Source: an uncultured cyanobacterium (GTDB lineage Bacteria > Cyanobacteriota > Cyanobacteriia > PCC-9006 > JAAUQQ01). Taken from it: 64,000 nucleotides of DNA. The stretch covers positions 4,576,001-4,640,000 of the forward strand of contig OY970368.1 of the NCBI GenBank assembly GCA_963718615.1. Direction: 5' to 3'. The notes under the pieces were generated by a model that saw only the letters and a list, made by a program, of their open reading frames with translations, had not been told where the DNA came from and searched no databases. Below, one piece after another: positions 38,970 through 42,493 of this stretch; within the stretch, counting starts at the first letter, position 1; each line of letters starts with the position of its first letter. A program made the translations under genes and the position numbers.

Positions 38970-40544
38970 ATGTATATCTATACTGACAAGCCTTTATCGG
39001 GAATTGAGGAGCCGTCAGTAGGGCTAGCGGGAGATCTCACAGAAAATTTCAACTTAAGTGAGTTTGCCTCTCGGGGAACGCCTGTACCTGCACAGTATCT
39101 CAGTAATGTGAATCGCTTGGCTAAAAATCTACAAGCTCTCAGAAATTATTTGGGAAAGTCAATTCATATTAATTCTGGATATCGTACACTAGCTCACAAC
39201 AGTAGTGTGAATGGGGCGACAACGAGTCAGCATTTACTAGCCAAGGCAGCTGATATTACCGTCAAAGGCATGATTCCAAGTGAGGTATATTGTGCCATTG
39301 AAACATTAATTGCCAATGGCCAAATGCAGCAAGGTGGATTAGGGCTTTATGCCACGTTCGTACATTACGACGTGCGAGATGCCAGAGCTCGTTGGAAAGG
39401 TAAAGGGTCTCTGGTGCCGAGTTGTGGACTCACACCTACAAAAACAATAAATACATTAGATCTGGAAAAAGCCGTTATAAAAAACAGCGAGTGGAGCCAA
39501 AAGCTGGGTTGGTCAGCCTATCTCGGCGCAATTATGGCCTTGGTAGGATATGTGCCATTGCCTTTTCCTAGTCTGAAAAACTTTGCAGAGGCGATCGCCC
39601 GTTGGCAAAGTCATCAAGGATTACTGCCCGCAGATGGCATAATTGGACCTAAAACTTGGGAGAGAATAAAAAAGAATACTCAAATACAACAACCTTTACC
39701 AATCAATCAAAAGCCAGCTAGATTAAGTATAGATCCTGAGACCCTTGAAAAGATTGGTCAATACGCCTCAATTATTGAACGAATTGCTCGCGATAAAGAC
39801 GTTGATCCAAGCATCATAAAAGGCATTATTGCAGCAGAATCAGGAGGTGACCGCTATAAAGAAGCGCCTAGTGGATATAAAGGCTTAATGCAAGCAAAAA
39901 AAACAACAGATCAATTTGAACCTGAAATTAGTATTCACGATGGAGTTGAAAAATTCAAGAAATTTAGAGAAAACTGGCTAGGCCCTCGACTTAAAAAGCT
40001 TGGGATTGATTTGAACGTTCTGGACAAGAAAACCATGGTTGCTTGGGTCACTACAGCTTACAATGCTGGTCATGTGACTGTTCTAAAAGCCGTGGAATAT
40101 GCTACGGCTTCAGGCGATCCTAAAAATTGGATGGCTCCAGAACATTATCAGCGAGCATTAATTTTTTCTGGAGGATACAGTATAAGCACTGCTAAGAAAT
40201 CTTTCTTTAAAAAATTGAGTGAAATTGAGTTAGTGGAAGAGGTAGCAAGGATAAAGCATACGAACATAAACGATCTTCAGAAAGGATATTCTTTTTCAAA
40301 CAAATGGGACATTGAGAAACTCAAGCAAGTCCTCATTAAAGAGGCCGCTAAGGAACAGAAACATTGGAAATTTAGCGGGAAAAAATGTCAATGGTGGCAA
40401 TGCCCTGATCCACCTTTGCTACAAGATATTCGCAGGCATTCATCTCGTTTATTGCTATATGCGGTTGAATTTAAGCGCGAAAATACTCCCAAGTACACTG
40501 GCAAAATCATCAAATATATGAATTATTACGATAAAGCAGATTGA
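38970..40544 (+). CDS. multidomain peptidoglycan hydrolase: peptidase M15A + PG-binding + lytic transglycosylase (SLT)
   Basis: SGYRT..SQH..AADI..FVHYDVR; DGIIGPKTW; IAAESGG..GLMQ..AYNAG. Confidence 0.88.
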   Translation: MYIYTDKPLSGIEEPSVGLAGDLTENFNLSEFASRGTPVPAQYLSNVNRLAKNLQALRNYLGKSIHINSGYRTLAHNSSVNGATTSQHLLAKAADITVKGMIPSEVYCAIETLIANGQMQQGGLGLYATFVHYDVRDARARWKGKGSLVPSCGLTPTKTINTLDLEKAVIKNSEWSQKLGWSAYLGAIMALVGYVPLPFPSLKNFAEAIARWQSHQGLLPADGIIGPKTWERIKKNTQIQQPLPINQKPARLSIDPETLEKIGQYASIIERIARDKDVDPSIIKGIIAAESGGDRYKEAPSGYKGLMQAKKTTDQFEPEISIHDGVEKFKKFRENWLGPRLKKLGIDLNVLDKKTMVAWVTTAYNAGHVTVLKAVEYATASGDPKNWMAPEHYQRALIFSGGYSISTAKKSFFKKLSEIELVEEVARIKHTNINDLQKGYSFSNKWDIEKLKQVLIKEAAKEQKHWKFSGKKCQWWQCPDPPLLQDIRRHSSRLLLYAVEFKRENTPKYTGKIIKYMNYYDKAD

Positions 40545-40723
40545 AGAAGGAAAATACGTACTAGAACAGACACAAAGTAGTAAGCAGGCTAAATATCATC
40601 AGGAACTCGAAAAAACAGCATCTTGATGTCAAAATTAGTGCTCTGAGAACCGAGCGTCGTCGAAGTCTATGCTTGCAGGCATGCTATTAAATTGAAAATT
40701 AGTAAGAGGTTGTAAACCTTGGC

Positions 40724-41653
40724 ATGTACATACTATTGGGACACAAATCAGCGGGAAATCAGTTAGCAGGACTTGGGCAAACGAAAGTAGTAGAAACTCA
40801 TTCACAAAGCTCAACCTCAGCTTTGACTTTAGCTGTCCCTAAAATGGTTAAAGTTGCCGAAACCTCTCCTTCGTTCAGTACTCTATACGTTGGGATTGAT
40901 CTGAATCCCGTTTGGGAAAACCGGAAAATTGATGGCAAATGGAAGCAGACTCGTGCCTATGCCTCACCCATGACGGGCATCTTCATTCCTAAAACCTATA
41001 TCCCTCGATCAACCGTCAACTTGATCTTGTATCTACATGGGTTTAAAGCGCCTTGTGGACTCGATGAAAAAGCGACGATTAACCAATACTGGAGCCAGGG
41101 TTACTTTAAATGGCTAAGAGAAGCCGTTAATGATAGTGGCCAAAATGTGATTCTTGTTGCACCAACATTGGGGCCTAGATCAGGTGCAGGCAAATTGATT
41201 CAATCGGGAGGATTCAATGCGTTTATCGATCAAGTTTTAGCGGCTCTCAACGCCTACAACCCGCTCAACAAAATTCCTTTTATTAATCGATTTACTCGCA
41301 ACCAATCGATAGGCAATATCATATTAGCTTGTCATTCTGGCGGTGGGAAACCAATGCGGGCGATCGCATCTCTAAATCCTAGTACCGACAGCTATGCCGC
41401 CCAGATCAAAGAATGCTGGGGCTTTGACTGCTTGTATAGCGGAGATGACGCCAACGCATGGCGCACATGGGCAAGCGCCCATCCCCAATCCAAACTTTTT
41501 GTCTATTACAAAAATTCTACCCATCGACAATCGGAACAGCTTCGAGACCAACGCCCTCACCTTAGTAACGTCTTTGTTCAAAAGTCCAACGCAAAGAATC
41601 ACTGCTCTGTTCCCAGTCACCATTGGAAAGAACGTCTTGTAAACATATCGTAG
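40724..41653 (+). CDS. alpha/beta-hydrolase-like protein
   Basis: LILYLHG, LACHSGGG nucleophile elbow, FDCLY, C-terminal His. Confidence 0.7.
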   Translation: MYILLGHKSAGNQLAGLGQTKVVETHSQSSTSALTLAVPKMVKVAETSPSFSTLYVGIDLNPVWENRKIDGKWKQTRAYASPMTGIFIPKTYIPRSTVNLILYLHGFKAPCGLDEKATINQYWSQGYFKWLREAVNDSGQNVILVAPTLGPRSGAGKLIQSGGFNAFIDQVLAALNAYNPLNKIPFINRFTRNQSIGNIILACHSGGGKPMRAIASLNPSTDSYAAQIKECWGFDCLYSGDDANAWRTWASAHPQSKLFVYYKNSTHRQSEQLRDQRPHLSNVFVQKSNAKNHCSVPSHHWKERLVNIS

Positions 41654-41665
41654 GAGAGCATAAAT

Positions 41666-42493
41666 ATGTATCTATTAACAGATAAACAGATGGATGGACT
41701 AGGTAAATCTGCAAGCCCTATTGATTTAGAACATGCAGTTCAACGCAATCTTCACTATGGGAAGGTGCTTCAGTGGCAGCCTAAACTAGGCGCTATTATG
41801 CGCCTAGTCGATTTTTCGCCTCGGCTTTCTGGACTGATTTGGGAAAATTTAAAGAGCTTTGCTGAGGCAGTGGCTAAGTGGCAGCAGGAACAACGGATAT
41901 CGCCACCTGATGGCATTATCGGGCCAAAAACCTGGGCGAAAATGCAGCTTCTGATTCCAGATACTATCCAGCCTGCGCCATCTGCCCAACCCTCTGGGTC
42001 TTTAAATTTAATTCCCTTAGAGTCACCAGGCGGTGGTCGTCTTAAAGACAAAAGTGAGCTAAAGGCATCTGATCAAGTTACCTTTAAACGCTATACCGGA
42101 ACAGAAACGGTGCCGCTTCATCGCCTTGCTGCCTCGGCTTGGGCAGCTTTGATTAGTGCAGCGCGGATGGATGGGATTGCTGAGCCCTTGTTACTACCGT
42201 CGTCGGGCTATCGTTCCGATCAAAGACAAGCCAAAGCATGGGCAAAAGCGCTCAAAAAGTATGGCACTAAGGAACTAGCCAGAAAGTGGGTCGCGCCACC
42301 AGGCAATAGTGCTCATCGGACGGGGCGGGCGATCGATTGTTGGCTCGGCCTGCGCAACGGTAGTGAAAATGTGACTAAATTGCGTCGGCAGCCTGCTTAT
42401 CAGTGGTTAGTGAAAAATGCTTCCCGATTCGGGTTTTATCCCTATTCAGCCGAACCTTGGCATTGGGAATATAATCCGCCTAATCTAGGCTAA
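41666..42493 (+). CDS. PG-binding + M15B (VanY-like) D-Ala-D-Ala carboxypeptidase
   Basis: DGIIGPKTW; SGYRS..Q, APPG.SAH.TG.AID, EPWHWEY. Confidence 0.88.
   Translation: MYLLTDKQMDGLGKSASPIDLEHAVQRNLHYGKVLQWQPKLGAIMRLVDFSPRLSGLIWENLKSFAEAVAKWQQEQRISPPDGIIGPKTWAKMQLLIPDTIQPAPSAQPSGSLNLIPLESPGGGRLKDKSELKASDQVTFKRYTGTETVPLHRLAASAWAALISAARMDGIAEPLLLPSSGYRSDQRQAKAWAKALKKYGTKELARKWVAPPGNSAHRTGRAIDCWLGLRNGSENVTKLRRQPAYQWLVKNASRFGFYPYSAEPWHWEYNPPNLG

Follow-up and report, generated by a model that had tools for sequence, protein, structure and literature searches.

Why should different hydrolases, encoded one after the other, begin with the same short peptide? The question is raised by a stretch of 64,000 nucleotides from an uncultured cyanobacterium (assembly GCA_963718615.1, contig OY970368.1, positions 4,576,001 to 4,640,000; hereafter the window). 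Three of its open reading frames (ORFs), at 38970, 40724 and 41666, encode proteins of 524, 309 and 275 residues. An earlier note on this DNA had proposed that they share a portable N-terminal leader, perhaps a cargo-loading signal, and the N-termini are exactly as it had claimed: MYIYTDKPLSGIEEPSVGLAG, MYILLGHKSAGNQLAGLGQ and MYLLTDKQMDGLGK all start with MYI or MYL and reach GLAG, GLGQ or GLGK within 21 residues. Here we report that this leader is very probably a portable N-terminal signal, specific to one system, whose scaffold repeats co-evolve with it. It occurs across many phyla, only beside an unstudied seven-gene cluster, which hints at a sorting or packaging route for enzymes that has not been described before.

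Three enzymes with a common leader

All genes between 23.8 and 45.9 kb of the window were scanned against Pfam. Enzyme 1 matched Peptidase_M15_3 (E 6e-18), PG_binding_1 and SLT, and enzyme 3 matched PG_binding_1 and VanY (E 2e-22). Thus, two of the three differing catalytic domains that had been read from the sequence (M15A with SLT, and M15B) are supported. The third, an alpha/beta hydrolase, is not, since enzyme 2 has no match in Pfam (E up to 10), NCBIfam, PHROGs, PADLOC or the PDB sequences. Enzyme 2 has 356 database relatives; fusions to PG_binding_1, PG_binding_3, VanY, M74, extensin-like or DUF2272 modules are frequent among its homologues and indicate that it is probably another peptidoglycan-directed enzyme. 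A hydrophobic N-terminus is absent from all of its 120 best homologues, and six begin with an MY..GLG-type leader. Judged from these relatives, the enzyme 2 domain displays the portability of the leader. In other genomes, many of its homologues (P0124-P0240) have different recurrent N-terminal motifs, for example M..QWLFEAP...EWLFE(A/T)P and M..F.FEAEPF....EFDE, which look like the leaders of further delivery systems.

None of the three enzymes shows a Sec- or Tat-like feature in our own hydropathy scan, which was used here and not SignalP: the top 10-residue hydropathy stays below 0.9 in residues 1-35 and there is no RR, as had been stated before. In the 6.1-Mb genome to which the window belongs, MY[ILVMF] opens 31 ORFs that have at least 80 codons and lie at most 40 codons from the upstream stop. 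The only adjacent ones are the three window genes, and this genome-wide scan revealed no further tagged gene. Seven of the 31 are copies of a single repeated 93-aa ORF. This 93-codon ORF, starting MYLGNCFHQSLL, occurs in seven near-identical copies spread over the chromosome and presumably belongs to a repeated mobile element.

Conservation and specificity of the leader

Upstream of the tagged genes and on the same strand lies a core of seven genes in the order transglutaminase-like enzyme, g118, g98, betaA, rep308, betaB and g153 (Table 1). A search with betaB, limited to one genome per species, returned 30 related loci, many of which end at contig edges and most of which come from metagenome bins. 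They belong to Cyanobacteria, Nitrospirota, Gamma-, Beta-, Alpha- and Deltaproteobacteria, Chloroflexota, Calditrichota, Armatimonadota and Binatia. The order of the core is preserved among them, and in almost all loci g153 is followed by a series of genes whose products start with MY and an aliphatic residue. The commonest leader is MYxxTxxGLGQ (for example MYLRTAEGLGQ or MYIRTNEGLGQ); shorter forms (MYLETGLGQ, MYMPTSLGQ, MYIHLGQP) and a longer one (MYIYDRRLL...GFG) also occur.

We counted ORFs of at least 80 codons that start with ATG-TAY. The 9-kb zone downstream of g153 contains 91 of them (0.43 per kb), whereas 29 lie upstream (0.096 per kb) and the opposite strand has 27 (0.05 per kb). 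The 87 non-nested ORFs, which include a few false positives far downstream (for example an ABC permease and YgfZ), have I, L, V or M at residue 3 in 80 cases, T at residue 5 in 33 and G at residue 8 in 35. Simple non-overlapping gene calling leaves 79 MY genes. At least one is found in 26 of the 27 sources that have at least 1.5 kb of downstream DNA, and in 20 of these 27 the first downstream gene is an MY gene. G[LF][GA] occurs within residues 1-20 of 32/79 MY genes, as compared with 45/1316 other ORFs of the same loci. The position of Gly-Leu-Gly is variable, from residue 6 to about 55, at the border to the first folded domain.

The starts are real. A Shine-Dalgarno-like site precedes 71 of the 79 MY starts, Tyr is encoded by TAT in 42 genes and by TAC in 37, and 18 different codons are used at residue 3. 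Such variation, together with the ribosome-binding sites, points to selection on the peptide, and on this sequence evidence the leader is translated and under protein-level selection.

The specificity of the leader was addressed by a blind scan, in which M-Y-[ILVM]-x-T-x-[DE]-G-L-G-Q was back-translated to a degenerate DNA pattern and searched for in 596 Gb of genomes. Of nine matches, five lie in loci with core genes, including a new carrier, Leptolyngbya sp. JSC-1, and two, one each in bins of Verrucomicrobiae and Acidobacteriota, follow a betaA gene at a distance of 9-10 kb on the same strand. The remaining two are ORFs of 21 and 12 codons, which is roughly the chance expectation. All matches that head a real ORF belong to this system. 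When the 87 tagged proteins were run against NCBIfam, no model covered the leader. The portable leader proposed for swappable enzymes next to the beta genes is thus conserved in homologous clusters and found only beside the core, its starts do not lie further downstream, and the further tagged genes that a scan of other genomes was to bring up do exist.

The window alone offers just three short, loosely similar N-termini, and one could suspect chance resemblance, mis-called starts or a signal acting at the DNA or RNA level in the start region. This can practically be set aside: it is refuted by the conservation of the leader across more than ten phyla, the Shine-Dalgarno-like sites, the synonymous variation of the Tyr and residue-3 codons, the restriction of full-ORF matches to the neighbourhood of the core and the co-variation of the leader with the scaffold repeat described below. 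The decisive support for a three-gene pattern beyond chance comes from the cross-phylum conservation and the blind scan.

Leader and scaffold repeats

The same hydrophobic-Tyr and Gly-Leu-Gly elements recur inside two core proteins. g98 is built from a LGLDELMIVNPG head followed by two or three FLGEDGTLYQVQGLG units. The front of rep308 has two copies of YLGExRQGPDGNLYQYVQGVDGLGNPIGGFW, then a basic/hydrophobic helix and then GLGALYQAPDGTLYQVQGL; its rear is an acidic tail, in which (D/E)-rich repeats of the form xLRGL or xMxGF are followed by a conserved C-terminus. A fixed-spacing position-specific scoring matrix made from 17 leaders recovered the leaders and gave just two internal matches, both weak. 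Because the scaffold copies have a shorter spacer than the leaders, we adopted the variable-spacer pattern [LMIVF]Y-x(3-5)-G[LIMF][GAS]. We found this motif 14 times in g98 homologues (2504 residues; 5.6 per 1000 aa) and 23 times in rep308 homologues (8461 residues; 2.7 per 1000 aa). Elsewhere it occurs 10 times in 158,323 same-strand and 6 times in 172,782 opposite-strand residues (0.03-0.06 per 1000 aa). In Nitrospira and proteobacteria, rep308 itself has a leader-like start, M(R/Q)YLSE..QMMGIG.

Three divergent loci (L027, L028 and L030) are without g98 and rep308. They encode a scaffold of 221-275 aa that has the head (..EVMIVNP) and tail (..PLW) of the main clade, with MGYY(A/G)EP repeats in between, and their downstream genes start with M(A/G/V/P)Y... 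followed by (Y)GEP, or with MY..GEP. In the 51 main-clade g98 and rep308 ORFs we counted 37 copies of unit A (LY..GLG) and none of unit B (MGYYAEP-like, a pattern composed after the sequences had been seen), whereas the three divergent scaffolds have no unit A and 11 unit B copies. The other ORFs, 330,386 residues in all, hold 43 unit A copies, mostly the leaders themselves, and one unit B copy. At the sequence level, leader and scaffold repeat change together. This co-variation suggests that both are read by one partner, and it is the strongest sequence-level argument that we have.

Related modules were seen at other places of these loci. In the divergent loci, at L027:5354-7401 and L030:6904-7560, the rep308 front module (..TGYLYEVP....YDGLGNPLG with a hydrophobic/basic tail) takes the form of one to three paralogous genes of its own, located upstream of g118. 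Residues 186-192 of betaB form an HNIAGLG loop that is invariant in 23/23 sequences, so that Gly-Leu-Gly is found inside a structural protein too.

Tagged proteins

Among the 87 candidates, Pfam recognised Beta-lactamase2 and Aspzincin_M35 (5 each), Trypsin_2 (4), PG_binding_1 (3), Amidase_2, OmpA and Golvesin_C (2 each) and VanY, Lipase_3, GH75, M15_3, SLT, M91, DUF2515 and DUF3238 (1 each). For many of the tagged proteins no family was recognised; in the long MYIYDRRLL class, two of four members tested have a beta-lactamase fold and two are without family. The tagged proteins, of 106-579 aa, are mostly peptidoglycan-directed enzymes and proteases, with one lipase, where they can be identified. 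By its domains, the client set reads like a polymorphic arsenal against cell envelopes.

In our own hydropathy scan, a Sec-like N-terminus, sought as a 12-residue hydropathy above 2.0 in the N-terminal region, was found in 0/79 clients, as was a membrane-like segment, and RRx[FLIV] was found in four, all of them without an h-region. The leader could then be an export signal for a non-Sec route, the core forming or feeding a secretion or release device (lysis-linked, for instance) and the enzymes being free outside. Clients that target extracytoplasmic structures and yet have no Sec or Tat features would be expected in such a case, their domain repertoire is like the effector sets of known secretion systems, and the enzyme 2 domain bears other recurrent N-terminal motifs in other genomes. 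We nevertheless think this unlikely: membrane segments are predicted in none of the core proteins (KD19 <1.6), neither an ATPase nor a channel family was detected in the cluster, and a secretion signal would not be expected to recur inside repeat proteins that look intracellular.

The distal ends of the arrays (L004-L013, L023 and others) have a conserved closing pair without an MY leader. One partner, of about 180 aa, starts with M(T/P)TISxTSN(E/D)G (8 loci); the other, of about 530 aa with the N-terminus FIWPL..DADRWDFHDGIDL (9 loci), is by eye a putative M23-type peptidase-like protein.

The seven-gene core

In the other loci, ORFs were clustered by similarity, which gave the family counts listed in Table 1. 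The gene families conserved over the 30 loci are the seven core families and regulators, and nothing else. A sigma-54 AAA+ activator lies near the Proteobacterial and Nitrospira versions, and LuxR and g313 lie near the cyanobacterial ones. No Pfam (E up to 10), NCBIfam, PHROGs or PADLOC family could be assigned to g118, g98, betaA, rep308, betaB, g153 or g313; the sole PHROG match had an E value of 0.0096, to a family of unknown function. The betaB family has 1226 database relatives, none of them named. g153 has three invariant Cys residues, C5, C8 and C45, and ends in a conserved GRxWYNTxYGG.

Table 1. Coordinates of the leaders, tagged enzymes, core genes and neighbouring genes in the window (position 1 is its first letter)
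Feature	Position	Strand	Basis or occurrence
Leader 1, 21 aa, MYIY...VGLAG	38970..39032	+	M15_3 domain begins immediately behind the leader
Tagged enzyme 1, M15A peptidase, PG_binding_1 and SLT lytic transglycosylase	38970..40544	+	Pfam
Leader 2, 19 aa, MYIL...AGLGQ	40724..40780	+	MYIL..GLGQP kept in homologues P0122 and P0123
Tagged enzyme 2, unnamed domain family, probably peptidoglycan-directed	40724..41653	+	Fusions of homologues
Leader 3, 14 aa, MYLLTDKQMDGLGK	41666..41707	+	N-terminus of the ORF
Tagged enzyme 3, PG_binding_1 and VanY (M15B) D,D-carboxypeptidase	41666..42493	+	Pfam
Transglutaminase-like (papain-fold) enzyme, first core gene	34159..35196	+	PF01841, E 1.7e-12; 25/30 loci
g118, core protein without named family	35193..35549	+	24/30 loci; 70 database relatives, none named
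g98, small scaffold-like protein, two internal LYQVQG(L/I)G units	35572..35868	+	Sequence, motif counts
betaA, predicted jelly roll with helical insertion, highly conserved	35945..36694	+	AlphaFold2 model; 28/30 loci
rep308, repeat protein, DGxLY..G(x)DGLG units, acidic (M/L)xG(F/L) repeat tail	36734..37660	+	25/30 loci
betaB, predicted eight-strand jelly roll with helical insertion, invariant NIAGLG loop	37735..38484	+	AlphaFold2 model; 30/30 loci
g153, Cys-containing, last core gene	38481..38942	+	26/30 loci
g313, one hydrophobic segment (KD19 2.03), accompanies the cluster in cyanobacterial loci	42570..43511	+	L001 homologue 59% identical
LuxR/GerE-type regulator beside cyanobacterial versions	43613..44074	+	PF00196, E 5e-19; homologues in L001 and L003
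Protein with N-terminal Effector-associated domain 1, just past the cluster	44893..45894	+	PF19955, E 1e-22

The first core protein matches PF01841 at 48 bits, with a cut-off of 23, and has only a weak match among the PDB sequences (3isr, E 0.015). Its Cys105, His140 and Asp155 are invariant in 15/15 homologues, and with this triad kept the transglutaminase-like enzyme is probably active. Two alternatives give this enzyme the central role. In the first, the leader would be a pro-peptide only: wall enzymes would be kept inactive in the cytoplasm of the producer, or marked for activation, until the protease removes it at Gly-Leu-Gly, packaging would not take place and the jelly-roll proteins would do something else, such as binding to target cells. 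The location of Gly-Leu-Gly exactly at the border between leader and domain, the variable spacing from MY to GLG, the invariant triad and the loose conservation of the residue after GLG, as at a protease P1' position, all agree with it. We consider it rather unlikely, since 9-20 residues are short for an inhibitory pro-domain and since it leaves unexplained the many unit copies in non-enzymatic scaffold-like proteins, the invariance of Tyr2 (87/87) and the many small tagged proteins without a recognisable enzyme domain.

In the second, the enzyme would join a Gln (or Lys) beside Gly-Leu-Gly to scaffold or shell by isopeptide bonds, the leader being the tag for a covalent tether. QxP is a transglutaminase substrate motif. 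[LF][GA]Q is present in residues 1-45 of 34/79 leaders, with Pro at +1 or +2 in 20 of these 34, and the scaffold units are Gln-rich (LYQVQGLG). However, many leaders have R, E, W, G, H or A behind GLG, residues that cannot be cross-linked, Gln is absent from two of the three window leaders and many PF01841 members are proteases, which makes such a tether quite improbable.

AlphaFold2 predicts an eight-strand jelly roll with a helical insertion for betaB (predicted local distance difference test, pLDDT, 68.5) and the same plan for betaA (pLDDT 65), whose mean column identity across phyla is 62%. The best fold matches of betaB are the PHM enzyme domain (Z 9.5) and the SPV1 capsid protein (Z 9.0; another 7.1). 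Whole-domain matches of betaA are viral capsid or scaffold jelly rolls at background level (Z 6-7.4), and further matches of the two include satellite panicum mosaic virus, HCIV-1, P23-77 VP16/VP17, the Orf virus scaffold and CRESS-virus capsids. A best Z of 7-8 is typical of unrelated models with this tool, so that a jelly roll is indicated and nothing beyond. We dropped a PHM-like copper enzyme, suggested by the top match of betaB, as betaB has one invariant His and no invariant Met or Cys. With hhalign, betaA against betaB gave E 0.05 and a probability of 1% over 66 C-terminal columns, and thus no support for common ancestry, and g153 against betaB gave no match. A complex prediction for betaA, betaB and g153 with a 36-aa leader alignment returned an ipSAE of 0.00, which is evidence neither way.

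Tandem betaB-betaB fusions were also found (P0041 and about seven similar proteins, about 430 aa, each half about 40% identical to betaB). Some of the fusions are encoded in the divergent loci (L027:9911-11296 and L028:2113-3504), where a further, separate betaB paralogue follows. The tandem form is a two-jelly-roll arrangement, as in double-jelly-roll capsid proteins and enzymes such as PHM.

The G+C content is 40-51% between 34 and 44 kb of the window, as compared with 52-57% in the flanks and 52.3% across the genome, and betaA was found in one of 401 sampled genomes of the same phylum, the window's own. From this low G+C and this rarity the cluster looks horizontally acquired. In IMG/VR, the INPHARED phages and the PLSDB plasmids, betaA has no relative. 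ESM Atlas rows labelled 'Viruses' found no confirmation in the viral collections. The Effector-associated domain 1 encoded just past the cluster (Table 1) is, as far as its sequence match goes, the hallmark of a separate conflict or immunity system.

Proposed mechanism

We propose that the leader (Met-Tyr-aliphatic, a variable spacer and Gly-Leu-Gly, often followed by Gln-x-Pro) acts as a system-specific recruitment signal that would mark a changeable set of cytoplasmically made, mostly peptidoglycan-directed hydrolases as clients of the core machinery. It would imitate the repeat unit (hydrophobic-Tyr ... Gly-Leu-Gly) of the scaffold-like g98 and rep308, so that clients and scaffold would be handled by the same binding site. 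Both would co-assemble, probably while betaA, betaB, g153 and g118 form a multi-subunit body. The transglutaminase-like enzyme would most likely act at Gly-Leu-Gly, by which the leader would be cut off and the scaffold cut in pieces, the GLG-type units of rep308 and g98 being processed like scaffold proteins in maturing virus heads. For the loaded hydrolases, attack on the walls of other cells or controlled lysis would be most plausible. A fixed MY tip with a movable GLG fits a docking tip and a processing site better than one rigid epitope. Binding, assembly, cleavage and final use are what we infer here from sequence.

We give this packaging-and-processing mechanism with a scaffold-mimicking leader a probability of about 0.45. 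Several points weigh against it. Assembly, binding and cleavage are predictions from sequence and modelled folds. The strict G[LF][GA] is found in residues 1-20 of just the 32 leaders counted above, the residue after GLG is variable (Q in 23/45, otherwise R, K, E, W or G) and GLGQ occurs in one of the three window leaders. The matches to viral capsid folds are at or barely over the background of the tool; betaA and betaB are unusually conserved, with many invariant polar residues, which would also fit enzymes or receptors in place of a shell. The window core has no ATPase, portal or membrane protein to account for release. Finally, most related loci are metagenome bins with gene calls that are our own simple ORF calls, and unit B was an after-the-fact pattern.

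A bolder version, which we put forward as doubtful, is that the system would be a bacterial organelle or particle not described so far, spread horizontally and made of two jelly-roll proteins as a third structural solution next to HK97-fold encapsulins and bacterial microcompartment shells. It would be a protein-only 'killer capsid' with a polymorphic arsenal of wall enzymes that would be loaded via the scaffold-mimicking leader and matured by the transglutaminase-fold enzyme.

The minimal result is well supported, namely that the leader predicts system membership and that leader and scaffold repeat co-evolve; a regular expression combined with betaA can already be used in annotation to locate the system and its clients. 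If the packaging mechanism were true, a tag of 9-20 residues would be a new protein-sorting code and seven unnamed families would make up a new cellular machine, present in at least ten phyla, with nitrifiers, methanotrophs and cyanobacteria among the carriers. Such a machine would account for the way in which dozens of signal-less wall-degrading enzymes stay safe in the producer and then get used. It would also add to bacterial cell biology a protein body that is neither HK97-type nor a bacterial microcompartment, and offer biotechnology a very short transferable loading tag.

Comparison with known systems

We found no description of the cluster or the leader in the literature, subscription journals and supplements being outside the search. 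Effectors of extracellular contractile injection systems (eCIS) and type VI secretion systems carry N-terminal packaging regions or marker domains. As in these systems (for eCIS, as far as parts of PMC8213781 describe them), polymorphic arrays of hydrolytic effectors without Sec signals follow a conserved structural module. Unlike them, the window has no sheath, tube, baseplate or spike families between 23.8 and 45.9 kb. For PRD1-like and two-jelly-roll viruses, the capsid fold matches (SPV1, HCIV-1, P23-77; Z 5.8-9.0) are at background level and an ESM Atlas lead to PRD1 P3/P2 scored only 0.78; in contrast to such viruses, no FtsK/HerA-type ATPase is encoded in the same part of the window or as a conserved gene in the clustered loci.

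Two processing systems are also reminiscent of the leader. Double-glycine leaders are cleaved by the papain-like C39 peptidase domains of bacteriocin exporters, and here too the leader ends in small residues (Gly-Leu-Gly or Gly-Leu-Ala) and a papain-fold Cys-His-Asp enzyme is encoded alongside. However, neither the cluster nor the conserved families of the loci include a C39-ABC transporter, the clients are enzymes of the sizes given above, and the leader is shorter with an invariant Met-Tyr start. The adenovirus protease, a cysteine protease that trims core and scaffold proteins of a jelly-roll capsid, cleaves at (M/I/L)XGX-G sites. Some units here (M-D-G-L-G, L-A-G-L-G, I-D-G-L-G, M-Q-G-L-G) resemble them, a resemblance only, whereas most consensus leaders (T-x-E-G-L-G-Q) are without a hydrophobic P4 and the enzyme fold differs.

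With regard to cargo loading, the part of the earlier note that stands is the portable leader on swappable enzymes, tied to the upstream beta genes, with loading into a shell as a putative mechanism; the likeness to encapsulins and eCIS is an analogy only, as neither an HK97-fold shell nor a sheath, tube and baseplate turned up. The nearest match in function is the capsid targeting sequence of phage T4, and encapsulin targeting peptides come next. The T4 sequence is removed by the prohead protease. Encapsulins are defined, in the part of PMC8346489 concerned, by an HK97-fold shell protein, for which Pfam and NCBIfam gave no match among the core proteins here, betaA and betaB being predicted beta-sandwich jelly rolls. 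The peptide described here is N-terminal and not C-terminal, has two anchors (MY and GLG) that are mirrored in repeat scaffold proteins, and tags a cargo set that is large, polymorphic and wall-directed. Like encapsulin cargo peptides, as portrayed in parts of PMC8346489 and PMC7925596, it is short and portable, heads varied enzymes and is encoded beside genes for a putative self-assembling body. The system also differs from T4, in that it has no relatives in IMG/VR, INPHARED or PLSDB and no match to a PHROG HK97 capsid, portal or prohead protease. Its predicted jelly rolls are not HK97-fold, its transglutaminase-like enzyme is not a prohead serine protease, and its clients are wall hydrolases where those of T4 are anti-restriction proteins. 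Nonetheless, the T4 signal, which according to passages of PMC3012670 is a short N-terminal peptide that is the sole common part of diverse, fast-changing proteins and directs them into the scaffolding core, has in the leader described here its counterpart: an N-terminal signal of about ten residues common to otherwise unrelated proteins.

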